This document shows positions 375 through 15,298 of a stretch of 56,497 nt of DNA, in pieces. The notes beneath the pieces were generated by a model, which was given only the letters and a program-made list of their open reading frames with translations, made no database searches and had not been told where the DNA came from. The position numbers were made by a program, and so were the translations under genes. How positions within the stretch are numbered: the stretch's first letter is position 1; each line of letters starts with the position of its first letter. This DNA is from Myxococcales bacterium (GTDB taxonomy: Bacteria; Myxococcota_A; UBA9042): positions 1-56,497 of the forward strand of contig CANMNA010000003.1 of assembly GCA_947499075.1 (NCBI GenBank), in the 5' to 3' direction.

Positions 375-2792
375 GTGCTTCGACCTGTTCAGCCGGCATT
401 GTCAACAACTTCGGCTGTCCTCGCTGGTCTGCTGGTTCTGCTCGGGCTAGCGTGCCGCCGCATACCGGTGCCGACTGCGACGCCGCCTGATGCGCCGCCA
501 CGGCATGCCATGGCGCCATTGCCCAAGGAAACCATGACCGCACAGCCCAACAACCATCCGGGTTCGCAGCCGTATTCAGCCGAAACCGCCGTGGCGATTG
601 CCCAGGCATTGGCCCAAGTGCCCGCATCCTTTCAGCCTCGCACCCGGCACTACGGCGGCCAGGCGCACCCACCGCAGGGCGAGCACACCGACCCGAATGC
701 ACCGGTTGGGGCCACGCCCAATTTCACCAATCGTCTGATTCTGGAGGCCAGCCCCTACTTGCGGCAACACGCCCACAATCCGGTCGACTGGCGGCCATGG
801 GGCAAGGCGGCGTTTGACGAAGCCCGCGCGCTGAACCGACCGATTTTCTTGTCGATTGGCTACGCGACTTGTCATTGGTGCCATGTGATGGAGCACGAGA
901 GTTTTGAGGACCTGGCGATCGCCCACCAGCTCAACAGCCAGTATGTGCCGGTCAAAGTGGACCGCGAGGTGCGCCCCGATGTCGACGCCGTGTACATGGC
1001 GGCCGTGCACGCTCTGGGCCGCGGCGGCGGTTGGCCGATGAGCGTATGGCTGATTCCCGACCCCAAGCAGCCACAAGGCGTGGTTGGTCTGCCCTTTTTT
1101 GCCGGCACTTACTATCCACCCAAGGACGGTGATCGTGGCCAGCGCATGGGCTTTGGCACGCTGCTGGCACAACTGGCGACCGCCGTGCGCGACCACCGCG
1201 GCGAGATCGAGGCGCATGGTCTAGAGCTGGCGGCTGCAGTCAAGACTAACCTGGAGAGCGCGGCGCCAGACGTCGAGATGCTGCCCCTGACGTTGGCGGA
1301 CAGTGCCGTCAACGAGTTTGCCCAGGGTTACGACCCGCGCGATGGCGGGCGTCGCGGCGCGCCCAAGTTTCCGTCGAACACGCCGTTTGGCCTGCTTTTG
1401 CGTCACCACTTGCGCACCGGCGATCGCCAAGCAAGCGACATGGTCGTGCATACCTTGCGCATGATGGTGCGCGGTGGCATCTGGGATCACGTCGGCGGCG
1501 GCATCGCGCGCTACAGCACCGACGCGCAGTGGTTTGCGCCGCACTTTGAGAAGATGCTGTATGACCAAGGCTTGGTCGGCATGGCGCTGGTCGAGACCGT
1601 TTCGCTTTGCGGCGATCCCGAGTTGGCCCAGGCTGCGCGCGACCTCTTCGATTTTGCCGTGCGCGAGTTTGCTCACCCAGACGGTGCGTTCTACTCCGCG
1701 TTCGATGCCGACAGCGAAGGGCGCGAAGGCCTGTACTACCTGTGGTCGGTGGCGGAACTCAAGGCAGTGCTGGGCGAGAGCGACGGCGCGCTTGTTGCCC
1801 AGTTGTACGGCGCGACGGTGCAGGGCAACTTTGAAGGCAGCAATATCTTGCACTTGGCGCGGGCCTTGACCCCAACAGAGCTGGCGCAGACCCGCCCAGC
1901 GCTGCACAAGCTGCGGATGGTGCGGGCCAAACGCGTCCCGCCGCTGCGCGACGACAAGATCTTGCCGGCTTGGAATGGCTTGCTGATCTCGGCCTTGGCC
2001 CGCGGTTCGCTGGTGCTGGGCGAGCCGAAGTATCTCGCTGCGGCCCAGCGCGCGCTGGAGTTTGTGCACGCGCAGCTGTGGCAAAACGGGCGGCTGCACC
2101 GCAGTTGGCTGCACGGTCGCCCGGGTGCCGATGGGCAATTGGACGACCATGCCAACGTGGTGCAGGCCGATCTGGACATCTTCGAGGCCAGCCACGACGC
2201 CGTATGGCTGCAGCGCGCGCTACAGGTTCAGTCGGCCCAAGACCAATGGTTCGCCGACAAGGAACATGGCGGCTACTTCGCGACGCCCAGTGATGGCGAG
2301 ACGCTTCTGGGGCGCCAAAAGCCGGACTACGACGGCGCTGAGCCGTGTGGCAACTCGGTGGCCGCACTCAACTTGCTGCGGCTGGCGGCCTTGACTGGCG
2401 ACGACCTATGGCGGGCCAAAGCCGACAGCCTGTTTCGCGCGCTGGGTGCGCGCGCCCGCCGGTCGCCGATGGCGGTGACTGACCTGTTGACGGCCCTTCA
2501 GGCCCGCAATGCACCGATCAAGGAAGTGGTCCTGGTCCGGCCAGCGGGCAGCGACCCGGCTGTTCTCAGGCCGCTGCTGCACGTCGTCAACGCCACGTTT
2601 ATGCCGCACCGCGTCGTAGTAGCGGTGGCGCAAGGGCAGGGCGGCGCGCTGTGGACACCGCTGGCTGGCCTGCTGGAGGGCAAAGTCGCGCAGGACGGAC
2701 AGCCGACCGCCTATGTGTGCCGATTGGGCGCTTGCAAGCGCCCGACGCGCGATCCCGAGGTGCTGCGCCAGCAGCTCTTGGACCGCGACTAA
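375..2792 (+). CDS. Thioredoxin-domain protein (DUF255 / YyaL-like), probable lipoprotein
   Basis: 805-aa ORF with a GTG start about 8 nt after AGGAGG. N-terminal LLVLLGLAC lipobox-like signal. '[22 protein letters not shown]' thioredoxin-like motif followed by a long helical region typical of this family. Strong GC3 bias. Confidence 0.85.
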
Positions 2793-2918
2793 GGAACGGT
2801 CAAGGAACAACTCGATCACTTTGGTGCTGCAAGGAGCGGCGAGTCGGCTGTCAAGTCGCGAGCGTGCGACCCACCTAGCAAGCACGAACGGTCCAAGCCA
2901 TACTTGGACAGTTCCTAA
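2790..2918 (+). mobile_element. 123-bp MITE, copy A (core 2793-2915, TAA/TAA flanks)
   Basis: Core is 116/123 identical by hand alignment to copy B. Inverted termini GGAACGGTCAAGG...CTTGGACAGTTCC. The left TAA is the stop codon of the upstream CDS. Confidence 0.85.
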
Positions 2919-3506
2919 GAGGGTGTATTCATAATGTCGCCGCCAGGCCAAGGCGCCGCACTAGCAGGCCGATCATCGCCAATTGAACCCATGCGTTGGA
3001 GCTCGCGACTGTCGCTTCGTAGTCTTTACTGAGGCGGCGGTTGCGGCCGAGCCAGCCAAAGGTGCGCTCGGTTTGCTGGGCGCTTTCTGCAGCTTGACCT
3101 TGCGGTAGCCAAGTTCCTTCATCGCCTTGGCGACCGTCCCGCTACCCAGCGATTGCTTGGTCTCTTCGGTGAACGCAGCAGCCAACTCTTCGAGCGTCAA
3201 CTTCCCGTTTGCCTCGATGAGCTTGCGCAGGACCAGCAGCCCGGCGGCGTCCAGAATCGGCTTTCGCCCACCGCCAGCCTTGCGAAGCTGTGGCAACAGG
3301 CCAGCCGCTCTCCCCCACTTCTTCAGCCTATCCAATGGGATCGCGGTCGTTCCCGCCAGTTGCTCGACTGTCTTGCCAGCCCGTAGCTCTGCAAGCACTT
3401 CGTTTTGTTGCTCTTCCGAATATGCTTCCGTCATGACCGCCTCCTTGTGGCAGGCGTCCTTGTCGCACGGCGCGATCGGCGGTCAAGTTTTTTGAATACA
3501 CCCTCT
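2918..3506 (-). mobile_element. IS630-family-like non-autonomous element (589 bp)
   Basis: Perfect 14-bp terminal inverted repeats AGAGGGTGTATTCA (2918-2931) / TGAATACACCCTCT (3493-3506), flanked by TA on both sides as in IS630/Tc1-mariner. The only ORF is HTH-only. The element is too short to encode a DDE transposase. Confidence 0.7.
2973..3434 (-). CDS. IS630-family transposase N-terminal HTH fragment (no catalytic domain)
   Basis: 153-aa ORF. 'GGRKPILDAAGLLVLRKLIEANGKLTLEELAAAF...GTVAKAMKELGYRKVK' matches the paired-HTH N-terminus of IS630-type transposases. The C-terminal approximately 30 aa look like out-of-frame junk after a deletion. Confidence 0.6.
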   Translation of the reverse strand: MTEAYSEEQQNEVLAELRAGKTVEQLAGTTAIPLDRLKKWGRAAGLLPQLRKAGGGRKPILDAAGLLVLRKLIEANGKLTLEELAAAFTEETKQSLGSGTVAKAMKELGYRKVKLQKAPSKPSAPLAGSAATAASVKTTKRQSRAPTHGFNWR

Positions 3507-3634
3507 TAGGAACGGTCAAGGAACAACTCGATCACTTTGGTGCTGCAAGGAGCGGCGAGTCGGCTGTCAAGCCGAGAGCTTGCGACCCACCAAGCAAGCA
3601 CGAACTGTCCAAGTTATACTTGGACAGTTCCTTA
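3506..3634 (+). mobile_element. 123-bp MITE, copy B (core 3509-3631, TTA/TTA flanks)
   Basis: Same 123-bp core. 12-bp right-end hairpin GAACTGTCCAAG-ttata-CTTGGACAGTTC. The right TTA is the complement of the HEPN gene stop codon. Confidence 0.9.
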
Positions 3635-4030
3635 ATGCGCAATGAGCAGGCCAGTCGCCCAGAACAGAACAGTCACGGCGGCGGCAACAGCGCGGTCACC
3701 TTCCGCCTCAGTCATTTCCGCTTCGCCATAGAACGCCGGTGCCCGCTTGCGCGCCAGATCGGAGGAGGTGGCCACCAGCCATTCGGCAAACTCGGCGTCC
3801 AGCGCAACGTTGCGGCTGCGCAAAGTTTCTGTGACGACCGCGCCCACATCGTGGACCTTGGGGTAGTCGCGGCCAGCCCACAATAGCACCGCCTTCTCGG
3901 CCAACTCGACAACCTCTTGGGCGCGCCGAACGGCCAGATTCCAATGCGCGGCGCCCAACGCCGCTTGCGCTTCGGCCAACACCAGCGTCGCTTCCGTCAA
4001 TAACCGCCGGCCTTGGCTTCCATTGGTCAC
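3632..4030 (-). CDS. HEPN domain protein (toxin partner of MNT)
   Basis: The ORF track gives 3632-4078. A GTG at 4030 overlaps the upstream TGA (GTGA), suggesting translational coupling. 'AVRRAQEVVELAEKAVLLWAGRDYPKVHDVG' fits the classical HEPN helix pattern. Confidence 0.75.
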   Translation of the reverse strand: MTNGSQGRRLLTEATLVLAEAQAALGAAHWNLAVRRAQEVVELAEKAVLLWAGRDYPKVHDVGAVVTETLRSRNVALDAEFAEWLVATSSDLARKRAPAFYGEAEMTEAEGDRAVAAAVTVLFWATGLLIAH

Positions 4031-4542
4031 CACGACAATTCCTCGCCAGGCCGCATCCCCGGCTTGAGCTCCCAGCACCAGCTCCCGTCCGGCAGCGCCA
4101 ACCGGTGGCTGCCATGCCGCGCCATGCTCTGCCGCACCCGTTCTAGGTGGTCAGCCACAACGCCATTTCGGTCAAACAGGATCTCGCCGTCAGTTGCCAC
4201 ATCCAGCAGCAACAGGGGGTGGTCGCTAAAGCGCGTCAGACTATGCACGACGATGGCCGGCGTGGGCTCTAGGCCGAGCCGCTCAATCACCTGCTGGGCA
4301 GTGCTGCGGCGCACCTCACCCAAGGCCGCCGACAGTGCGGCGTCGACGGCATCGTCGTTGCTGGGCACCACCAACAGCAAGTCTATGTCGCTGCCTGGGC
4401 GCTGCTGCCCGCGCGCGCACGACCCAAACAGGACCAGACCCAGTTCTCGCTCGCCGAGTGCCTGATGCAAACAGCGTTGCACGGTGGCGAGATAGCCTTT
4501 GAGCGCCGGAGCAATCATCGGTTGATGCGGCCGAGACACCAT
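4027..4542 (-). CDS. Minimal nucleotidyltransferase (MNT) domain protein, antitoxin partner of HEPN
   Basis: 'LVLFGSCARGQQRPGSDIDLLLVV' is the GS-x10-DxD nucleotidyltransferase motif. An alternative start lies at ATG 4518. Confidence 0.8.
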   Translation of the reverse strand: MVSRPHQPMIAPALKGYLATVQRCLHQALGERELGLVLFGSCARGQQRPGSDIDLLLVVPSNDDAVDAALSAALGEVRRSTAQQVIERLGLEPTPAIVVHSLTRFSDHPLLLLDVATDGEILFDRNGVVADHLERVRQSMARHGSHRLALPDGSWCWELKPGMRPGEELSW

Positions 4543-5316: not shown

Positions 5317-5985
5317 CTACATGATTTTGGTCAGGGTCTCTTTGGCCGCAAACACCGCGGCCACTTGTCTAGTCTTTTCGGCATGGGCCAGCGCGAGTTG
5401 CACCGCGTGGCGCGCTTCGTCGGTGTTGCCCAGCGCCCGCATCGCCAGCGCCTGCAGCCGCAGCGTCTCAGCCAACACTTCCAGCCGTCCGACCCGGCGC
5501 TGTGCCCGCCCCGACTGGCGCAGGACCTCGAGCGCCTCCTTGGGTCGCCCCGAGTCAAGCAGCACGTTGCCCAAGTTAGGAACTGTCCAAGTATAACTTG
5601 GACAGTTCGTGCTTGCTTGGTGGGTCGCAAGCTCGCGGCTTCACAGCCGACTCGCCGCTCCTTGCAGCACCAAAGTGATCGAGTTGTTCCTTGACCGTTC
5701 CTTAGAGAGCGAAGTCGCCAGCCCCAAGGTGTCGTCCAGCGACTCAAACCGCAGCCGGACTTTGCGGTAGGCCGCCTCGGCATCGCCCAGCTTGTTGGCG
5801 CGCCACGCCAGATTGCCCACCGACAGCTCGACGTTGGCCGCCGCCACCTCATCGCCGCCGCGCACAAACGCCGCCTGGCCTTTGGTGTAGTGCTCCTGCG
5901 CGGCCGCATGCTCGTCTTTGCGCGCGCAGGCATGGCCCAGCCAGGTGTGCAGGCGGCCGATGCCCAGGTTCAGGTCGGTGTCCAT
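5317..5985 (-). pseudogene. Small TPR-repeat protein gene interrupted by MITE copy C
   Basis: Two same-frame ORFs (5641-5997 and 5317-5574) are separated by the 126-bp insertion. Removing it joins ...LATSLS-N-LGNVLLDSG.... TPR-like A/L/G periodicity on both sides. Confidence 0.7.
5576..5704 (-). mobile_element. 123-bp MITE, copy C (core 5579-5701, TTA/TTA flanks)
   Basis: The reverse complement is 121/123 identical to copy B. Identical 3-nt direct repeats on both sides. Confidence 0.9.
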
Positions 5986-6226: not shown

Positions 6227-6613
6227 TCAAGTCCAAAGGATCGGCACACCATACGCACGGAGTGCTTCGTCATGCGTGACAAGCGTGAAACCAAGGCTCG
6301 CCTGAGCCACGAGCAGGCGGTCGAACGGATCGCGGTGGTGCCAGGGCAGCTTGCGCACAGCGAGCGCGGCTTCGGGTGAAATCGGCAGCATGCCGATACC
6401 CACTTGTCGGCACGCCATCGGCAGCCACAACTCTGCTTGGTCTGGCAACTCGAGCTTACCGACCGATTGTTTGATGGCAATCTCCCACAAACTTGCCGCA
6501 CTGACGCTGACCCGATTGTGGGGAGCCGCGATCTCCGCGGCAACTTCAGGTCGCAGCCGAGATGGCTCAAGCAGCGCCCACAGCAGCGCGTGTGTATCGA
6601 GCAGCAGGTCCAT
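6227..6613 (-). CDS. vapC: PIN-domain toxin (VapC-like)
   Basis: 'MDLLLDTHALLWAL...SLWEIAIK...HRDPFDRLLVAQA' carries the PIN acidic residues. The start is 1 nt after the antitoxin stop. The longer track ORF (to 6718) is read-through. Confidence 0.85.
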   Translation of the reverse strand: MDLLLDTHALLWALLEPSRLRPEVAAEIAAPHNRVSVSAASLWEIAIKQSVGKLELPDQAELWLPMACRQVGIGMLPISPEAALAVRKLPWHHRDPFDRLLVAQASLGFTLVTHDEALRAYGVPILWT

Positions 6614-6614
6614 G

Positions 6615-6848
6615 TCAGACCCCAAAAGCTTCGGCCATGTCCGGCGGCAACTGGTCAAAATCGTCTGCGATCCACAGTTTTTGCCCGGCAAAGAGGCCCA
6701 GTGGACGCGGCTCGCCAATGGCTGCCAGCGGCGTGAGCCGCGCGACCGGCGTACCAGCGCGCGCGATGATGATTTCCTCGCCTGCGGCGGCGGCGTCGAT
6801 CAGGCGCGAGAGGTGGGTTTTGGCTTCGTGGACGTTGACTTGGCGCAT
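6615..6848 (-). CDS. Phd/YefM-type antitoxin
   Basis: 'MRQVNVHEAKTHLSRLIDAAAAGEEIIIARAGTPVARLTP' is a typical Phd/YefM N-terminus. The track ORF (to 7088) is an upstream extension. Confidence 0.8.
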   Translation of the reverse strand: MRQVNVHEAKTHLSRLIDAAAAGEEIIIARAGTPVARLTPLAAIGEPRPLGLFAGQKLWIADDFDQLPPDMAEAFGV

Positions 6849-6875
6849 TTCAGGCCCCGCAATGCCCGGTGGACC

Positions 6876-6915
6876 GGACTTAGTCCAGTGTAGTTTGAGG
6901 GTCGCCGCGTTGCAA
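6876..6915 (-). promoter_or_regulatory. Putative sigma70-type promoter plus palindromic operator of the Phd-VapC operon
   Basis: On the minus strand: TTGCAA (6910-6915), 17 nt spacer, TACACT (6887-6892). This is followed by the palindrome GGACT-t-AGTCC (6876-6886), just upstream of ATG 6848. Confidence 0.4.
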
Positions 6916-6972
6916 GGACCGGCCGGCGCGGTGGGGCGGCAACTGGGGTCTTGGGTCCATCCGCACCGCCAT

Positions 6973-7001
6973 TTGACCCACCCCAGCCCCGGCACTACGC
7001 T
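6973..7001 (+). promoter_or_regulatory. Putative sigma70-type promoter of the kinase gene
   Basis: TTGACC (6973-6978), 17 nt spacer, TACGCT (6996-7001), about 60 nt upstream of ATG 7063. Confidence 0.35.
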
Positions 7002-7062
7002 AGTGCAGCCCACGGTCACGGGCGGCCCGCCGCCGCCACGCCGCCGGCCGGATCGCACCGCC

Positions 7063-8478
7063 ATGACGCTTGACGTCGGTTCCACCATTGAAGGCCGCTA
7101 CGAACTGACGGGGCTGCTCGGCAAGGGCGGCTACGGCTCGGTGTACCGTGCGCGGCAGCTCAACATGGACCGCGATGTGGCGATCAAGGTCATCTTGCCG
7201 CACCTGATCAGCGACGAGCGGATCGTCAAGCGCTTTTTGCGCGAAGCCCGGGCGGTGTCGCGGCTGAAAAATCCGCACATCGTCCAAGTCTACGACTCGG
7301 GCTGCACCGGTGACGGCACCTTGTACATCGTGATGGAATTGCTGCAAGGCCGCTCTCTCAAAGATATTTTTGCAGAGCAAGCACCGATGGAGCCCAGGCG
7401 GCTGGCCAAGCTTTTGGCGCAGGTCTGCGAAGCGCTGGCGGAAGCACACTCGTTTACGCCGCCTGGCACTACGGAACCGGCGCCGATTGTCCACCGCGAT
7501 CTCAAGCCCGAGAACGTGATGGTGGCGACCTCGCGCGCTGGCAGCGAGCACTGCTACCTGCTCGATTTTGGCATCGTGCGGATGGCCGACGAAGAGATCG
7601 ATCTGGACGCCTCGCTGACCGGCGGCATGGCCGTCGGCACGCCGTATTACATGTCGCCGGAGCAGGGCTATGGCGAGCGGGTTACGCCGGCCGCCGACCT
7701 GTGGGCGCTGGGCGTGATGCTGTACCAGGGGCTGTGCGGCAAGCGACCGTTTGGTGGCAAGTCGGTGCTGGCGATTGTCCAAGCCGTGACCCAAGATCCG
7801 ACGCCGCCGTTGCAGGTGCCCGATGGCCACCTCGAGCCGCCGTTGGCGCTGGTGCAGTTGGTCGAGCAGTTGCTGCAAAAAGACCCGGCGCAGCGCCCGC
7901 AGTCGGCGGCCGATGTCCAGCAGGTGCTGCTGATGGTGGCGGCGACCGGCACGCCGCACCCGCCGTTTCGGCCGATGCCGAAGTTGCATCCGCCGCCGCC
8001 CGCGGTGCCACCGCCGGTGTCGGAGTCTGCCCAATTGCCCGCATTGGCGGCGCAGCCTACGGCTGCTGCGTTGCCTGCCCCGATGGCCCACCCGTCGCGG
8101 GCGCTGCGCTGGATGGCCGTGGTCGCCGTCCTGGTGCTGACGGTGGCGGCCATTGGCTGGGTCGTGGTCGGGCAAGTGTCCCCGCCTGCCAAGGCGGCGG
8201 CCGTAGTGGTTGCACCGGCTGTCGCCGAACCACCGGTCGTCGTGGTACCGCCACCAGTCTTGCCCGCGGTGGCAGTGGCAGCGCCAGCAACTGTTACACC
8301 GGCAGCGCCAGCACCTGCCGACCCGGCAGCGGCAGCACCTGCCGACCCGGCAGCGGCAGCACCTGCCGACCCGGCAATTGCCGCTCCACCCAGCAAGCCA
8401 CGGCCGCGCGTGCGCGACGAAGCCAAGCCAGCGGTCAAACCAGCTGTCAAAGTGGGACCCAAGGTCAACCTTGATTAA
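7063..8478 (+). CDS. Ser/Thr protein kinase with TM segment and Pro/Ala-rich tail
   Basis: 'GKGGYGSVYRA...VAIKV', 'HRDLKPENV', 'DFG', 'YMSPE' Hanks motifs. TM 'WMAVVAVLVLTVAAIGWVVV'. The portion of the track ORF upstream of 7063 is non-coding read-through. Confidence 0.9.
   Translation: MTLDVGSTIEGRYELTGLLGKGGYGSVYRARQLNMDRDVAIKVILPHLISDERIVKRFLREARAVSRLKNPHIVQVYDSGCTGDGTLYIVMELLQGRSLKDIFAEQAPMEPRRLAKLLAQVCEALAEAHSFTPPGTTEPAPIVHRDLKPENVMVATSRAGSEHCYLLDFGIVRMADEEIDLDASLTGGMAVGTPYYMSPEQGYGERVTPAADLWALGVMLYQGLCGKRPFGGKSVLAIVQAVTQDPTPPLQVPDGHLEPPLALVQLVEQLLQKDPAQRPQSAADVQQVLLMVAATGTPHPPFRPMPKLHPPPPAVPPPVSESAQLPALAAQPTAAALPAPMAHPSRALRWMAVVAVLVLTVAAIGWVVVGQVSPPAKAAAVVVAPAVAEPPVVVVPPPVLPAVAVAAPATVTPAAPAPADPAAAAPADPAAAAPADPAIAAPPSKPRPRVRDEAKPAVKPAVKVGPKVNLD
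8311..8382. repeat. 24-bp in-frame tandem repeat x3 (PADPAAAA) inside the kinase tail
   Basis: GCACCTGCCGACCCGGCAGCGGCA repeated at 8311, 8335 and 8359. The third unit is diverged at its end. Confidence 0.85.
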
Positions 8479-9418
8479 GCTGGGCGGCACACTGTGCTGG
8501 ATGGTCGCGCTGGCGACGCTGGCGATGTCCGCACCGGCGTTCGCCGACACGGCTGCGGACGTCCAGTCGGCGTTGCAAGCGGGCGATTTGGACCGCGCCA
8601 TTGAGCTGGGCCAGCGCAGCCTGCAGCGCGATCCCGATCCAGTGGTGGCTGCGGCAGTCGCCGAAGCGTGGCTGCGCAAGGTCAAGGCGGCCAACGACAA
8701 AGGCGCTGACCTGCCCGAATTGCTGGTGATGGTCGACAAAGGCCTCGCGGTCTTGCGCACGCCCAAGCTGCTCAAGAGCCGCGGGCGCATCCTGTCGGCC
8801 TTGAACCGCGATGTCGAAGGCTACGAAGCGTATGAAGAGGCACTGGAGCGCGGTGCGACAGGCAAAGAAGCGGGCGACGTCGCGATCGGCATGGGCGAGC
8901 TACACGCCAAGATTGGGCTGCACCTGTGCCGGTTGGTGGTGACCTCGCTGCCGGTCGGCGCCAGTGTGCAAGTCGGTGCGAGTCCGACGAATGCGCCCAC
9001 GCCCGTCAAGCAGTGGGTACCGCGCGGTCCGATTGTGCTGCGGTTAGAAGGTGCGTCGCCGCCGCCGGTGACGGTGACCAAGCTGTGCGCGGGTGCGCCA
9101 GTGGTCGTACATGTCGATATTGCTGGTAAAAGCGTGATCAGCACACCGCCGCCGGGCAAGCCGCGTCGGCCGGGCATGGCCGAGTTGCTGCCGGGCGACG
9201 TGGACAAGACACCGCGCTGGCACCAGCCGGTGCAGCTGGGGTTGGCGGGTGTGGGCGTTGCGACGTTTGGGTTGGGCCTGTACTGGAATTACAATTATAA
9301 CCAACAGGCTCGGGCGCGAACTGCCGATCCAGATCAGCGCACAGCTGCGGTGTCGGCGTATGCGCTGGGCAGCACGCTGATTGTGGCTGGGATTGTGTGG
9401 TGGTGGATGGATCGGTGA
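8473..9418 (+). CDS. Secreted TPR-like / PEGA-like protein with C-terminal TM
   Basis: TTG 8473 (overlapping the kinase stop) or ATG 8501 is followed by signal 'ALATLAMSAPAFA'. 'LVVTSLPVGASVQV...' is a PEGA-like beta module. C-terminal TM 'GSTLIVAGIVWWW'. The track ORF start at 8210 is unlikely. Confidence 0.6.
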
Positions 9419-9430
9419 CCGCAGCGCCGG

Positions 9431-10594
9431 TCAGTTGACGTCCGCCCGCTCGCCCCGCCACGCCAGCAACGCCAGCGCCACCAGCTTGGCCCTCTCGACC
9501 ACGCTGTGCTTGTCGATGCGCTCGTCGTGCGTATGCGGGTGCTCGCCCACTGGGCCCAGCCCGTCGATGGTCGGGATCCCCAAAGCGGCCGTGAAGTTGG
9601 CATCCGATCCGCCACCGGTATCTTCAGCGCCCAGCTTGATGCCGTGCTCGTCGGCGACGGCTTGGAAGTGCGCGATCAGCTTGTCGCACGCCGCATTGCG
9701 CTGCCACGGCGGCCGGCCGACGCCGCCGATGACTTCGACCCGCGCGCCGGGTACCGGCGCCGTGCTACACAGCTCGCGCACCGCGGCCTCGACGCGTTCA
9801 CCTTCCGCAGCAGTCAGCACGCGCACGTCGATCTCGGCTTTGGCTTCGTCGGGCACCACGTTGCGCTTGGTGCCGCCCTTGACCACGCCGACATTGACGG
9901 TGGTGCCCTTGCCGCTATCGGTCAACGCCGAGATGACGGTGATCAAGTGGGCCAGGCCGACAATGGCGTTGACACCGGAAGCGTGATCCATGCCGGCGTG
10001 GGCACTCTTGCCGTGCACAGTCACGAAAAAGCGGCCGACGCCGGCCCGCGAGCGGACAACGGCGCCGGTCTTGCGGCCGATCTCAAAGTCGAGGCAAAAG
10101 TCGCGGCCGGCGGCGGACTGCTCGATGAGCGCGCGCGAGGTCGGCGACTGAATCTCTTCGTCGGCGTTGTGCACGCAGACCCAGTCGAAGTCGCCCAGCT
10201 TGCCGACGTGGTGCAGCGCATCGAGCGCCGCTTGGGCGACCACTAGCCCGCCCTTCATGTCGCCCACGCCAGGGCCGCACAAGAACGGCCCCTGCTCGGT
10301 GAACGACTGAAACGAGCTGGTCGAGTCGTACACCGTGTCAAAGTGCCCCAGCAGCAAAACCTTGGGCGCGGTCGCCAGCTTGCTCGGTCGCCGCGCCACC
10401 AAGTGGACCATCTCGCCGGCACAGGCCACGCGCTCGCAGGCAAAGCCCAGAGACTTGTAGATGATCTCGAGATGTTCCAGCACGCGGTTGCGGCCCGCCG
10501 GGTTGTCCAAGCCGCTGTTGATATCGACCAGCGCCCGCAGCCGCGACAAGTAGGTCGCCTCGCGGCGCTCGAGGAAGAATACGATTTCGTTCAT
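9431..10594 (-). CDS. M20 family metallopeptidase (carboxypeptidase G2-like)
   Basis: 'LLLGHFDTVY', 'GPGVGDMKGG', 'NADEEIQS', 'HGKSAHAG' metal-ligand motifs. Confidence 0.85.
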   Translation of the reverse strand: MNEIVFFLERREATYLSRLRALVDINSGLDNPAGRNRVLEHLEIIYKSLGFACERVACAGEMVHLVARRPSKLATAPKVLLLGHFDTVYDSTSSFQSFTEQGPFLCGPGVGDMKGGLVVAQAALDALHHVGKLGDFDWVCVHNADEEIQSPTSRALIEQSAAGRDFCLDFEIGRKTGAVVRSRAGVGRFFVTVHGKSAHAGMDHASGVNAIVGLAHLITVISALTDSGKGTTVNVGVVKGGTKRNVVPDEAKAEIDVRVLTAAEGERVEAAVRELCSTAPVPGARVEVIGGVGRPPWQRNAACDKLIAHFQAVADEHGIKLGAEDTGGGSDANFTAALGIPTIDGLGPVGEHPHTHDERIDKHSVVERAKLVALALLAWRGERADVN

Positions 10595-10607
10595 CTTGAG
10601 AAGTTCC

Positions 10608-10843
10608 TAAGAGGGTGTAGCCAAAAAAAGCGGTGCTGGGCGAGGACCTACGAGGACCACAACCCGCGCATTTTCGCCGTCAGAATGAATTCTGCGGCTA
10701 CAGGTAACGGTGTCGGCCTGGGCCGACACCCGGCCAGACAATTGCGCAGGTGGGACTGTAGCCGCGCACTTCACTGCGACGGCGTCCCCGACAATGGTCA
10801 CCGCTGCGGTTTTCCAGTTGACTCCATTGGCTACACCCTCTAA
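10608..10843. mobile_element. 230-bp ORF-less TIR element related to the IS630-like element at 2918-3506
   Basis: Perfect 12-bp inverted repeats GAGGGTGTAGCC (10611-10622) / GGCTACACCCTC (10829-10840), flanked by TAA/TAA. Shares the GAGGGTGTA...AAAAAA ends with the 589-bp element. Contains an internal 10-nt inverted repeat at 10709-10730. Confidence 0.7.
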
Positions 10844-11018
10844 GAGGTTGTTTATCTTCAAACTCCTGCTGCGCGTAACCACGCATCCTGCCATGCTTCG
10901 TTGTCAACCGCCCTCCTCCCTGCGGCGCACTGCGAGTGCGCCTCACTCGTCGGTCGGTCTCCGCCTTGCCTGACGGGCGCCTGGCTCCGCTCGCGACGGA
11001 AATGAATGTAAACACCCT

Positions 11019-11570
11019 TTAAGCCAGCGCGACTTCGGCGACATTGCACTGCCCGCTGTGGCCATTGCAGTCCAAGTACAAAGTGCCGTCGCTGATGGTG
11101 GCTGTCCAGTCCATGCTGCGGCCAGCGTGCGGCTCGAGCCAGGCCACAAAGTCCTGCGGCACAGTGTAGAGGTGCACCAGCTCCAGGTGCCGCGGTCGCT
11201 CGGACAAGAGCTCTTTCTTGAAGCGCAGGGTGTCGTCGTCGCCGGCACATAAGCCAATGAACTTGCCATTCTTGCTGCGGCCCAGTGCCTTGCACAGCCG
11301 CTTCATCGGTGGCACCCCGCACTCGAGCCACATGGTCTGCTGCTCGGTCAGGTCAAACGCCCACAGGTCGGGCTGGGTCTGATCGAGCCAACCTTGGCCA
11401 TCGCGCATGCCTTCGTCATAAAACAGCACCCACGCCAAAAAGCGCAGCAGCACGTGCTCGTCGGGCTCGTCGGGAAACTGCGCGGTGGCAATCGTGCGCT
11501 GGGCGTAGACCTGCCGGTCCAGGTCGGACAGCACCAGGCGCACTTGGCAGCGAAACGAGCCGGATGGCAT
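11019..11570 (-). CDS. yaeQ: YaeQ family protein
   Basis: 183 aa from ATG 11570. 'FRCQVRLVLSDLDRQVY...EHVLLRFLAWVLFYDEGM...DLWAFD...WLECGVPPMKRLCKA' parallels E. coli YaeQ. The remainder of the 401-aa track ORF is an extension. Confidence 0.8.
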   Translation of the reverse strand: MPSGSFRCQVRLVLSDLDRQVYAQRTIATAQFPDEPDEHVLLRFLAWVLFYDEGMRDGQGWLDQTQPDLWAFDLTEQQTMWLECGVPPMKRLCKALGRSKNGKFIGLCAGDDDTLRFKKELLSERPRHLELVHLYTVPQDFVAWLEPHAGRSMDWTATISDGTLYLDCNGHSGQCNVAEVALA

Positions 11571-11729
11571 CTGGGCAGGCACAGCGCGGACATCCGCGCG
11601 CCGGCAGTGTAGCCCAGCGCGCCGCGGTTGACCAACCTGTGAGCAAAGATGAAGCCGCAAACCGGTCGCTCGGGTTCGCCGTCCCAGAGACATCGGCCGC
11701 CTGATTGTAACCGGCCGCAAGGGAGCCAG

Positions 11730-12458
11730 ATGAAAAACGTGCACGGTCAAAAATCGCTGCGCGCGGGCGTGGTGGTCCAAGGCAGAGTGGTCGCCGAGCA
11801 AGTGTTCGACCGACCGCGCGACGTCAGTGTAGGTAGCGCGACCGCCGCGGCGATGTGGATCGATCCGCAGCGCACGCCGGGCCTGCCTGCGCTGGTCTGC
11901 GTGCTGTGTTTTCGCCAGGGCCGGTGGCTGGCGGTGCCGCCCGCCACAGACCACGAACTCAAGCTGCGCGGTCCGGCCGGACAAGTGACCGCGGCACCCC
12001 CGGCCGAGATTGTGGCCGGCCTGGCGGCGGTGCCGCTGGACAATTGTGCCGGTGGCTCGCTCACAGTTGGCCAGCTCGTCGTGATGTTTCAGTGGGTGCG
12101 GCCCGACGCGGTGCCGGTGGTGACCGTGCGCAAGCCGATGCTGCGGATGGGTCTGGTCTGCGACGACCGCTTGCTGGCTGAGCAAGTCCATCAAACGGGT
12201 ACGACACTGTCCGTTGGCGGCCAACGCAGTGACACGCTGGTCTTGCCTGATGTGGACTATTGCGGCGCGCCGGTGCGGTTCAGCAAGGGCAAGAGCAGCG
12301 ACAGAGTCCGGGTCAGCGTGCCCATCGGATGCGGGCTGCGGCTGGCTAAGGAACTGTCAAGAAACTACCCGATCAATTTTGGCTCATCAGGAGCGGCGAG
12401 TCGGCTGTCAGGCCGGGAGCTTGCGACCCACCCAGCCAGCGCAAACTGTCCAACTTGA
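11730..12458 (+). CDS. Hypothetical two-module (FHA-like) protein, C-terminus replaced by MITE copy D
   Basis: ATG 11730 lies 5 nt after GGGAG. There are two similar modules (..GVVVQGRVVAEQVF..VSVGS.. and ..GLVCDDRLLAEQVH..LSVGG..). The last 36 codons are read from the MITE. Confidence 0.55.
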   Translation: MKNVHGQKSLRAGVVVQGRVVAEQVFDRPRDVSVGSATAAAMWIDPQRTPGLPALVCVLCFRQGRWLAVPPATDHELKLRGPAGQVTAAPPAEIVAGLAAVPLDNCAGGSLTVGQLVVMFQWVRPDAVPVVTVRKPMLRMGLVCDDRLLAEQVHQTGTTLSVGGQRSDTLVLPDVDYCGAPVRFSKGKSSDRVRVSVPIGCGLRLAKELSRNYPINFGSSGAASRLSGRELATHPASANCPT

Positions 12459-12475
12459 TGTTGGACAGTTCCTAA
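12347..12475 (+). mobile_element. 123-bp MITE, copy D (core 12350-12472, TAA/TAA flanks), most diverged
   Basis: About 99/123 identical to copy B by hand alignment. Same length, same termini and a compensated right-end hairpin (CCAAC...GTTGG). Confidence 0.85.
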
Positions 12476-12575
12476 CGATGGCGTGGCACTGGACGAGGCG
12501 ACCGCCGTGCGGCAAGGCCAAGCCACCAGCTGCGGCGGAGGTGATGGCCCAGAACAGTCATGGCCGCAGCCTAAC

Positions 12576-12690
12576 GGCGAACGGACCCGGTGTAAAGCGG
12601 GCAAAACCAAGCATTTTCAGTCGATTACATCGACAGGCACAGGTCGCTACACTGCCGCCAAGGCAAGAGCGACGGTGGCAAGACCGGCAC
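12576..12690 (+). promoter_or_regulatory. Possible cobalamin-riboswitch-like leader (weak call)
   Basis: Motifs occur in the canonical order: GGCGAA..CCCGGTGTAAAGCGGG (12576-12601); stem GTCGCT/AGCGAC enclosing CACTGCC-gccaa-GGCAAG (12643-12673); and a B12-box-like GGCAAGACCGGCA (12677-12689). The second ACUG element of the consensus was not found. Confidence 0.25.
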
Positions 12691-12794
12691 AGCAGGGGTC
12701 TGGAAGCAACCACGCCCGCGCAAACGAGTGGTGTTCGTCGCCAGCAAATGATGCGAGTATCTAGCTGCGGCACTGGGCCGACTTTCAGGGGCGG

Positions 12795-13523
12795 ATGAAG
12801 TACTTTCGTTGGGTAGCCATGGCCTTGTTGGTGTGGGTGGCGCCGCGGCCAGCTTGGGCTTGAGGATGCAGCCTGCCCACGGGTCCCGTGGTCAATGCAT
12901 CCCGCGCCGATACCGTTGACACCCGCCCCACCTACACCACCGGCGCCGCATGGGGGTGGATGAGTGCCAGCTTGGGCATGGCCCAAAGCGGCAACGCCAC
13001 GCTGGAGCGCAGCCAAGTCGCGGCGTGGTTCGGCCGCAGCCTGGGCCAGTGGACAGTGCGCGCCGTCGGCGGCGGTGTCTTTGGCGGCCAGTGGCGGGCG
13101 GACAACGTCTTGGTCGCCGTCACGCCCGGATGGATCGCCGGTGTCAGCGCGTCTCGCATGTGGAGCGACGGTGACAGCGTTCGTCCCTACCTGCGCTCGA
13201 CTTTTGCGCTCGCGGCCGCACGCCACGGTTTGGCCGACGGCGGCACCATCACCGCGGCCGACTTGCGCATCAGCGGCGAGGCCGGATGGCGCTTGGGTGC
13301 GGGCGTGCAAGTCTACGCGGCGGCAGCGGCTTTTGGCGGTCCGGTGGTCTGGTCGCGGCCCGGTCATGCGACCGATTGGGGCGGTGACCGCTGGCACGTG
13401 CAGGCGGGCGGCGGCGCGGCGTGGTCGCCGCAGGTGCAGTGGGCGGCGCGACCCAGTGTGTTTGTCCAGGCGATGGTGGTGGGTGAACTCGGCGTGTCGG
13501 CGGGGTTGGGGCTCAGTCTGTAG
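12795..13523 (+). CDS. Exported beta-barrel-like protein with an in-frame TGA (12861-12863) after the signal peptide: pseudogene, read-through or selenoprotein candidate
   Basis: ATG 12795 encodes MKYFRWVAMALLVWVAPRPAWA, then TGA. The same frame stays open to 13523 (the track ORF starts at GTG 12888). The body is W/G/A-rich with alternating strand-like segments. Confidence 0.55.
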
Positions 13524-13532
13524 CAGCGCGAC

Positions 13533-13871
13533 TCACCGCACCACCTCTTGGGGCGCCAACAGCAAATACGCCTCGCGCGCCTGCACCTGAGGATCCGCCT
13601 CCAAGCGCAGCAGCAGCCCATGGCTGCCGCCCCAAATCAGCGTCGAAGTCCCCGCACTGGAGTCGTTGACCGTGATGGCTTGCGCCACCGTCTCGCCTTC
13701 AGGCCCGCATCCGCTGACCAACCACTGCCCGTCGGGGCCATCATCGGGTTCAAACAGCACCACCGTCACCGGGCTTGGCGGCCCTTCGGCCTTCCAGCGC
13801 ATGCACAGGCCGCTGGGCAATTCGGGGTGTGCGTCGACCAAAACATCGACAAAATGACCGGTAGTGGACAT
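13533..13871 (-). CDS. Hypothetical protein
   Basis: 112 aa from ATG 13871 (MSTTGHFVDVLVD...). GC3-rich. No family recognised. Confidence 0.5.
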   Translation of the reverse strand: MSTTGHFVDVLVDAHPELPSGLCMRWKAEGPPSPVTVVLFEPDDGPDGQWLVSGCGPEGETVAQAITVNDSSAGTSTLIWGGSHGLLLRLEADPQVQAREAYLLLAPQEVVR

Positions 13872-14528: not shown

Positions 14529-14801
14529 ATGGCCACCAAGTCTGAACGTCTCGAAGCCCGTGTTCCTCGGCATATCAAGGATGTGTTGCAGCGCGCCGCC
14601 TACGCCCGTGGTCAGACGTTGACCGATTTCGTCGTGGCTGCCGCCACCGCCGCCGCGCGGCAGGTTATCGCTGAGGAGCAGGTTTTGCGCCTGACCGACC
14701 GTGACCATCGGGCGCTGATGGCGGCGCTTGAGCAACCGCCCTTGCCTGGGCCAGAATTGATCAAAGCCGCCGCCGCACGCGCCAAGCTGCTGTCGCCGTG
14801 A
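14529..14801 (+). CDS. tacA: DUF1778 (TacA-like, RHH) antitoxin
   Basis: 'MATKSERLEARVPRHIKDVLQRAAYARGQTLTDFVV' is a typical DUF1778 N-terminus. The stop overlaps the toxin GTG. Confidence 0.8.
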   Translation: MATKSERLEARVPRHIKDVLQRAAYARGQTLTDFVVAAATAAARQVIAEEQVLRLTDRDHRALMAALEQPPLPGPELIKAAAARAKLLSP

Positions 14802-15298
14802 CGGCGATGTGGACGGTTGCACGGCTCGCCGCCCACCATGACCGGAGCAACTTCGCTTGCGGCACACCGGCACTGGACAACTATTTCGCGACCTTGGCCG
14901 AACAGGACCAGCGACGGCAAGTTGCGAGCGTATTCGTCGCAGCGCAAGGTTCGGCTGTCTCCGGTTTCTACACGCTGGCGATGGCTGGCATCGACCGCAC
15001 CGGTCTACCCCTCGCCGCTCAGGACGGGTTGCCCAAGTATCAGACAACCCCGGCGATTCGCCTGGGTCGGCTTGCCGTTGCGACATCCGCGCAGGGACAA
15101 GGGCTGGGGCGTGCGCTGCTCGCCGACGCGATCCACCGTGCGCTCCTGCAGGAAATCGCGTGGGCGGTGTTTCTGGTGGACGCGAAAGATGACGGAGCGC
15201 GGACGTTCAACCTCAAGCACCACTTTTTGCCTTTGGCGGACGACTCGCTGCATTTGTATTTGCCGCGGGCGACGGCAGCGGCGGTGTTTGGGGTGTAG
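14798..15298 (+). CDS. tacT: GNAT-family acetyltransferase toxin (TacT-like)
   Basis: 'F.CG.PALDNYF' N-terminal motif and the acetyl-CoA loop 'RLAVATSAQGQGLGRALL'. Overlaps the antitoxin by 4 nt (GTGA). Confidence 0.8.
   Translation: MTAMWTVARLAAHHDRSNFACGTPALDNYFATLAEQDQRRQVASVFVAAQGSAVSGFYTLAMAGIDRTGLPLAAQDGLPKYQTTPAIRLGRLAVATSAQGQGLGRALLADAIHRALLQEIAWAVFLVDAKDDGARTFNLKHHFLPLADDSLHLYLPRATAAAVFGV

Follow-up and report, generated by a model that had tools for sequence, protein, structure and literature searches.

Short transposable elements with a 3-bp target duplication and a conserved folded core in freshwater Myxococcota

Four 123-bp repeats in a contig of a Myxococcales bacterium (GenBank assembly GCA_947499075.1, contig CANMNA010000003.1, positions 1 to 56,497; hereafter the window, which has 65% G+C and in whose positions the copies are numbered) are a family of non-coding miniature inverted-repeat transposable elements (MITEs) with a true 3-bp TWA target duplication. 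The large group to which they belong is found in uncultured freshwater Myxococcota and combines differing ends with one conserved, folded core of ~50 nt. We consider it probable that these MITEs are moved in trans by an IS5-family enzyme that duplicates 3 bp, and that the 52-nt core is selected separately and acts as a single strand. Among MITEs of the IS5/Harbinger type the family is ordinary. MITEs are normally defined by their ends while their interiors drift, and what is unusual here is a fixed, folded interior with interchangeable ends, its sharing across families and its orientation bias. In the model that we favor, an IS5-family DDE transposase of the TWA type would be supplied in trans, would bind the ~26-nt termini and would cut and paste the MITE. 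Insertion is frequent at TAA stop codons, with the 3-bp duplication restoring the stop, and the core, selected on its own, would fold as a + strand hairpin and act most likely as RNA.

The four copies align without gaps over all 123 nt. Copy A occupies 2793-2915 (+), between TAA triplets read directly at 2790-2792 and 2916-2918. Copy B lies at 3509-3631 (+) between TTA triplets, the right one at 3632-3634 (3506-3634 with flanks). Copy C lies at 5579-5701 (-), inside a TPR gene and between triplets that read TTA on the + strand (5576-5704 with flanks), and copy D, the oldest, at 12350-12472 (+) between TAA triplets (12347-12475 with flanks). An earlier note, made from the letters of the window alone, had described these copies; direct reading and alignment confirm their positions and the matched TAA or TTA around all four. 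Its hand-aligned identities were exactly reproduced (121/123 for B and C, 116/123 for A and B, 99/123 for B and D), so that old and recent copies do coexist. The 19-mer GGAGCGGCGAGTCGGCTGT is invariant and occurs four times in the window against 0.10 expected, a count that none of 100 shuffles reached, and beyond these four a covariance model of the core found no copy in the window. Also as described, the terminal inverted repeats are imperfect (GGAACKGTCAAGG / CTTGGACAGTTCC) and the right end folds back on itself. In copy B the left terminus (3509-3534, +) consists of an outer GGAACGGTCAAGG and an inner AACTCGATC, the latter common to the 3-bp subfamilies, and the foldback (3602-3630, +), GAACTGTCCAAG-ttata-CTTGGACAGTTC, pairs the terminal repeat across a 5-nt loop with an inverted copy of the terminus that lies further inside. 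In copy D the loop-closing G:C pair has switched to C:G (CCAAC...GTTGG). The element contains no conserved open reading frame (ORF), and the lengths of its hairpin loops differ between subfamilies by non-multiples of 3. A 31-codon ORF on the - strand of copy B was rejected as a gene, since it exists only with the flanking triplet and indels disrupt it in other subfamilies.

Relatives of the element are widespread in lake bacteria. In a scan of one genome per species with the 19-mer, true relatives appeared only in metagenome-assembled genomes (MAGs) of freshwater Myxococcales (Baikal-deep-G136, Ki3-D4_bin-362 and ErkenSummer_bin-0937). A metagenome scan with a gapped core pattern returned 113 loci with 170 cores and 143 distinct copies with flanks, most of them from a few lake metagenomes. 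No match to the element came from viral contigs or plasmids, and searches of the literature on IS5-family MITEs in bacteria and on MITEs in Myxococcus-type organisms found nothing on it. The earlier note had allowed that the sequence might be restricted to this locus, which the 143 distinct copies in related contigs show not to be the case. A local segmental duplication of repeats that are not mobile is therefore extremely improbable. It would account for the clustering of copies A, B and C within 3 kb, but the flanks of the copies are unrelated, with a separate matched triplet around each, a gene is cleanly divided by copy C and more than 140 copies lie elsewhere in unrelated contexts, so we regard this explanation as already refuted.

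The 3-bp duplication of the IS5/Harbinger kind that the earlier note had proposed is borne out by the triplets in the window, by the flanks of the relatives and by excision in silico. Automatic delimitation of the ends succeeded for 50 relatives, of which 34 have the same triplet on both sides, whereas random pairing of left and right triplets gave a mean of 16.9 and a maximum of 28 in 2000 shuffles; the remaining unmatched triplets are mostly boundary miscalls. The duplicated triplets in the 3-bp families are TAA, TTA and rarely TGA. TAA and TTA together occur 167 times in the window against ~1766 expected from uniform trinucleotide use, or ~10-fold more rarely. Copy C interrupts a TPR gene (5317-5985, -) whose frame, with the element present, runs into a stop inside it; public gene calls for the source contig (ENA ERZ27280213, k141_640418) give two products of 114 aa and 82 aa in place of this gene. 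Removing 5579-5701 and one TTA in silico restores a single TPR frame with the junction ...LGLATSLSNLGNVLLDSG..., and a search for a real empty site with the reconstructed TPR protein gave only the already split fragment. The 98% identity of copies B and C, together with the disruption of a gene by copy C, indicates that the family was recently active. Two other modes of insertion were rejected. A TA-only duplication of the IS630 or Tc1-mariner type does not fit, because the third base matches on both sides in 4/4 window copies and the model would require variable element ends. The REP or REPIN type does not fit either: a 3-bp duplication is present, and a GTAG-type tetranucleotide beside the palindrome was not seen.

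The insertions show a preference for stop codons and for sites beside the ends of other elements. Of the 50 delimited copies, 21 were inserted at the stop codon that ends a long flanking ORF, and in these the duplication recreates the stop. The window contains two such cases, both already pointed out in the earlier note: the left TAA of copy A is the stop of a DUF255/thioredoxin-like gene (534-2792), and the right TTA of copy B (3632-3634) is the TAA stop of a - strand HEPN gene. Another 10/50 figure describes MITE copies that adjoin an IS5-type GAGGGTGT end and share its triplet, and tandem MITEs at two loci (L011, L022) have one triplet in common; a TWA beside a resident end thus seems to be a favored target.

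Beyond these shared insertion habits, the relatives differ widely in their arms. Arm subfamilies include GGAACTGTGACA.., GGGCGTGTAAAAG.., GGGCATGTCAAAG.., GGAGCCTGTCC.., GGGCCCGAGCAAG.. and GGGACTGGAAAAC... In each subfamily the left end covaries with the right-end foldback, the two ends being ~63% identical over 16 nt, and all arm subfamilies contain the same 52-nt core. The core is also found in a sister family with unrelated ends, here called the T family, whose flanks read C-TA|TACAG...CTGTA|TA-G in 31/38 copies. This pattern implies a CTAG target with a TA duplication and hence a different insertion chemistry around the same core, whose place and orientation do not change. Chimeric MITEs join the left arm of one subfamily to the right arm of another (L022:3810-3876, L059:5892-5959 and L029/L090), which suggests either that recombination takes place across the core they have in common or that the transposase is not strict about the ends it accepts. 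Some T elements are nested in the CTAG of the foldback loop of another MITE (L041:10263-10443, L055, L122 and L094). Because this composite recurs in several unrelated places, the nested pair seems to be mobile as a single unit. At L109:11476-11731, L044, L025 and L115 the core is repeated in tandem, with periods of 87 nt and 118 nt and no recognizable inverted ends; these arrays reach contig ends, so that they may be longer than the sequences show. One further instance of the core, with another arm type, stands beside the gene for transfer-messenger RNA (tmRNA; tag ANDNVELALAA) in metagenome Ga0194120 (L061; 53-120, 142-504), 44 nt downstream of that gene and antisense to it.

The core lies at 2833-2884 (+) in copy A, 3549-3600 (+) in B, 5610-5661 (-) in C and 12390-12441 (+) in D, and it is conserved far beyond its surroundings. 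Between copies D and B, identity is 68% for the left arm, 90% for the core and 81% for the right arm. For 138 foreign copies compared with copy B, the mean identities are 54%, 82% and 48%, respectively, the two arm values being close to alignment noise. Fold statistics on 92 distinct cores best support one irregular hairpin. In it, two outer G-C pairs are followed by a 5-bp lower helix (GCGGC/GCU(U)GC), in which one G.U pair is conserved and one U is bulged, then by tandem G.A pairs formed by a CGAG/CGAG box, and finally by an apical stem that differs by lineage (CGGCT/AGCCG, CGACTT/AAGTCG, CGTTTC/GAAACG, CGGCC/GGCCG or CGGCCTC/GAGGCCG). In copy B the hairpin with its CGAG/CGAG tandem spans 3549-3587 and is followed by an A-rich tail, CACCAAGCAAGCA. 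Standard pairs fill 91.7% of cells and double-sided changes affect 7 of 14 pairs (47 cells), values that 0/500 shuffles reached; registers shifted by 1-3 columns were 31-45% paired. RNAalifold alone gave a weak consensus, and the covarying columns of the tandem-G.A fold also emerged from an unbiased mutual-information scan.

The earlier note had concentrated on the foldback, which is indeed present, and on a single compensatory pair, but the more remarkable feature is the core that is kept across unrelated ends. Several alternative structures were considered and rejected. A second hairpin (GCUUGC/GCAAGC) and the register of the single-sequence minimum free energy fold both had weaker pair statistics than the tandem-G.A model. 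A closing helix between the left arm and the tail of the core had a duplex energy of -7.6 for an element's own pair against -7.9 for cross pairs, and pairing of the left arm with the core strands gave z about 0 relative to shuffles. A kink-turn was dismissed because the tandem G.A is flanked by Watson-Crick pairs on both sides and the sole bulge is a U two pairs away. The + strand of the element runs from the left end through the core to the foldback. On the other strand, the G.U pair and the purine tandem would become an A.C and pyrimidine mismatches, which argues that the fold belongs to the + strand. Interchangeable ends around a conserved interior with a strand-specific fold suggest that selection on the module serves some purpose other than recognition by a transposase. 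We infer that the core is a selected, strand-specific module that would act as a single-stranded nucleic acid, most likely RNA.

Two other accounts of the core bear on the same evidence. The core could be functionless, kept uniform by recent ancestry and by recombination or gene conversion while the arms evolve faster or are swapped. Chimeric copies with arms from two subfamilies, the near identity of many copies and the origin of most data in a few lake metagenomes are all in keeping with this idea. Nonetheless, we judge it very unlikely: changes at paired positions are coordinated (U-A to C-G, G-C to A-U, G.U to C-G) while conserved bases outside the pairs do not vary, identity is 82% in the core but at alignment noise in the arms, and the core occurs in several lakes and MAG lineages. 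Alternatively, the core could be a cis-acting DNA site, rather than RNA, to which a host architectural protein or an accessory domain of the transposase binds to aid synapsis of the ends. Its position and orientation between the arms are fixed in all families, the IS5 transposase has an extra N-terminal helix-turn-helix (HTH) domain, the elements fall short of the persistence length of DNA, and the core contains two CGAG...CTTGC direct half-repeats. Yet compensatory changes and a variable apical stem favor base pairing over the reading of a sequence, and the core is also found in a family with a different target and duplication and in arrays without recognizable inverted ends. Moreover, a purely DNA-level role predicts no gene-orientation bias, and the insertion sequence (IS) itself has no such core. 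We therefore consider a DNA site unlikely, although less so than a functionless core.

The orientation of the elements relative to genes argues for an interaction with transcription. Counted against crude gene calls based on ORFs and third-position G+C (GC3) rather than annotation, the elements are antisense to their neighbors in 86 cases and sense in 41 (p about 1e-4), with the same trend in the 3-bp and T families, and between co-directional genes the antisense excess is 17 to 2. At the foldback end, the adjoining gene is convergent, with its 3' end toward the element, in 57 cases against 11, whereas the left end has no preference for gene direction (30 vs 29). In our judgment this bias is stronger than ordinary gene-strand bias, which points to transcription rather than replication, and the effect of the core would appear to depend on the direction of host transcription.

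The same bias could be explained if the - strand served as a portable, non-canonical terminator or 3'-end stabilizer, in which the foldback hairpin would be followed by the U-rich GUUUGCUKGCU that is conserved after it on this strand. Copies would then be kept preferentially where their - strand is co-directional with host genes, often right after a stop codon. The ~2:1 antisense bias overall and the 17:2 ratio between tandem genes would both follow, and in stop-codon insertions the foldback end is next to the gene in 14 cases against 7. In addition, the 10 nt past the foldback on the - strand contain a mean of 3.5 U against a background of 1.7 (2.1 on the + strand), and conservation is stricter for the foldback (0.80) than for the similarity of the left and right termini (0.63). 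The wobble asymmetry within the foldback (G.T 21 vs A.C 11) is not decisive. However, a scan for canonical intrinsic terminators was empty on both strands: the + strand lacks a T-run, and 3-5 U in 10 nt is a weak enrichment on the - strand. The terminator that the earlier note had entertained thus failed the canonical test. Such a terminator would also leave unexplained the best-conserved part of the element, the core, which lies downstream of the hairpin on the - strand and whose G.U and G.A features favor the + strand. We regard a terminator or stabilizer as possible but doubtful, and a structured single-strand module as the best remaining reading.

Resemblance and co-occurrence strongly indicate that the MITEs are mobilized in trans by transposases of the IS5 family like those encoded next to them. 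Between copies A and B lies a 587-bp element (2919-3505, -) with the ends GAGGGTGTATTCA...TGAATACACCCTC. The earlier note had taken it to be IS630-like with a TA duplication; it is instead an internally deleted IS5-family element, and its full-length relatives have DUF4096 and DDE_Tnp_1 domains and 3-bp duplications. Thus, a defective member of the family that likely mobilizes the MITEs separates two of them. The element keeps an intact ORF of 153 aa that encodes an N-terminal HTH (2973-3434, -), for which the sole family matches are weak HTH and IS630 N-terminal ones and a protein search for homologues gave no match. It also retains a C-terminal DDE fragment, detected by tblastn, which identifies it as an internal deletion derivative. 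Its flanks, TAA and TTA, are not identical because copies A and B occupy both junctions. The HTH-only product corresponds to the DNA-binding part of a transposase alone and could regulate transposition.

Intact copies of DDE_Tnp_1/DUF4096 transposases, present in the window only as this deleted derivative, were found in related lake contigs. One full-length relative (L090:1-1963) has a 297-aa ORF with HTH and DUF4096 followed by a -1-frame ORF with DDE_Tnp_1 (Pfam/NCBIfam), and NCBIfam calls both ORFs IS5 family (transpos_IS5_3). Another (L145:~1624-3586, within ~1615-3595) has TTA/TTA flanks and a DUF4096 and DDE_Tnp_1 transposase, and both transposases carry an extra N-terminal HTH like that of IS630/Tc3. 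The second of these ISs sits exactly between an apparent right MITE tip (..GGGCCC) and the left tip of another core-bearing MITE (GGGAC..). Many contigs end inside an IS of this type, which implies a high copy number. In the first, the transposase is followed by a G+C-rich non-coding region of ~650 nt (L090:1306-1963) that folds more stably than shuffles (z = -3.6) and lacks the MITE core. The ends of the ISs, GAGGG-TGT-ATGCAAAA-ACTTGAC, and those of the MITEs, GGAAC-TGT-CCAAGTAT-AACTTGGAC, follow one architecture: 5 nt, TGT, an A/T-rich stretch and ACTYG. IS5-family elements with this end architecture and the same duplication come from three related contigs (L090, L145 and L140); they share genomes with the MITE relatives and repeatedly adjoin them, and a GAGGGTGT left end occurs on one MITE with the core (L077).

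Small non-autonomous elements with these ends connect the two groups further. Two of them stand in tandem within 10608-11022, at 10611-10840 (230 bp) and 10844-11019 (176 bp). A TAA brackets each, the middle one being common to both, and neither has the MITE core. These tandem elements belong to the same transposition system as the MITEs. The pair lies between the start of an M20 peptidase gene and the stop codon of YaeQ, which the second element abuts, and its left flank ends in ...GAGAAGTTCC-TAA, resembling a MITE right tip. Four small GAGGGTGT-ended elements, of which 10611-10840 is one, have the flanks TTA/TTA, TTA/TTA, CTA/CTA and TAA/TAA; a TA-only duplication cannot explain matched triplets in 4/4. 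With the covariance model, no core was found inside the IS5 element, and the idea that the core is antisense to that element was discarded, as their complementarity is no better than that of shuffled cores.

Several results weigh against the combination of trans mobilization and an independently selected core. The window has no intact transposase, as the earlier note had also observed. Nor did we recover, by searching all loci for pairs of terminal inverted repeats 0.3-4 kb apart, by tblastn or among fetched homologues, any IS with the GGAACKGTC ends that the note had hoped to see in a full-length element; these searches for an autonomous partner gave GAGGGTGT-ended ISs only. The cognate enzyme is for this reason deduced from resemblance and co-occurrence. 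With regard to the core, Rfam 15 gave no gathering-score match in the window and only noise at E<=10 over 2700-3700, and the scans of the copies revealed neither a sigma-70 promoter nor, as stated above, a canonical terminator. The compensatory states come from a handful of core lineages and represent few independent events, one lineage (GGAGCGTGCAG...) is at odds with the lower helix, and the mixing of arms between subfamilies means that recombination through the core could contribute to its uniformity. The crude gene calls behind the orientation counts belong on the same side of the balance.

Comparison with known systems places the family close to IS5 and sets its core apart. The IS427, IS1031 and ISL2 groups of the IS5 family and their MITE derivatives (ISfinder) make 2-4 bp duplications centred on TA or TNA, and the ends of IS903 and IS5 start with GG..TGT. 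The two full-length relatives share with these groups a short TNA duplication, GG..TGT-type ends and the combination of DUF4096 and DDE_Tnp_1 through a -1 frame change. They differ in the IS630/Tc3-like HTH that is added to the transposase. The MITEs differ in carrying an internal module that is absent from the IS, and the exact cognate IS of the window subfamily was not found among the related loci. IS5 groups have been placed with Harbinger and ISL2EU, with duplications of 0, 2 or 3 bp within one group (PMC12730594). The PIF/Harbinger elements and Tourist MITEs of eukaryotes resemble the window MITEs in their 3-bp TWA duplication and IS5-related DDE transposase, whereas the present element is far smaller, resides in a bacterium and has no Myb-like second protein. 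The T family has the classic CTAG target and TA duplication of IS630/Tc1-mariner MITEs such as RUP and Stowaway, from which the window family differs by duplicating 3 bp rather than TA.

Other small bacterial repeats are similar in form. Correia elements of Neisseria and ERIC/REP-type repeats are abundant, intergenic, ~100-150 bp long and bounded by inverted ends; they are co-transcribed with their neighbors and influence transcript ends or stability. Correia elements have a TA duplication and a site for integration host factor, and REP elements make no duplication and are handled by RAYT proteins. The window MITEs share the small size, intergenic setting and inverted ends of these repeats but differ in their core, which to our knowledge none of these repeats has, and in their 3-bp duplication. 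The MITE-like bcr1 repeats of the Bacillus cereus group, which target TTTAT, have a conserved RNA secondary structure with reported compensatory changes. We do not know of bcr1 being common to families with different ends, and its sequence, target and host are unrelated to those of the window MITEs.

A bolder reading, which we hold only tentatively, is that the core is a new structured RNA or single-stranded DNA module with its own function, spread by at least two transposition systems. Its function might, for example, be that of a protein-binding tandem-G.A hairpin. Its carriers would be MITEs of the 3-bp TWA IS5 type and of the TA-in-CTAG type, as well as tandem arrays, and as vehicles the MITEs would have seeded a regulatory or structural motif beside hundreds of genes in freshwater Myxococcota. 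If the core does act at the RNA level, the MITEs would distribute a ready-made motif of this kind to stop-codon-proximal sites throughout the genome. The subfamilies, chimeras and tandem arrays form a natural data set on what the interior of a MITE can do, and insertion into stop codons with regeneration of the stop offers a low-cost means of spread for such elements in G+C-rich genomes.

Finally, other features of the window accompany its mobile elements. Three toxin-antitoxin-like pairs lie within 12 kb, interleaved with them: a HEPN/nucleotidyltransferase pair (3632-4518), a PIN/Phd-YefM pair (6227-6848) and a pair of TacA-like protein and GNAT acetyltransferase (14529-15298). A 24-nt tandem repeat (GGCAGCGCCAGCACCTGCCGACCC) occupies 8277-8372, and a single 24-nt indel within 6407-13594, probably one unit of this repeat, distinguishes the window from the public contig.

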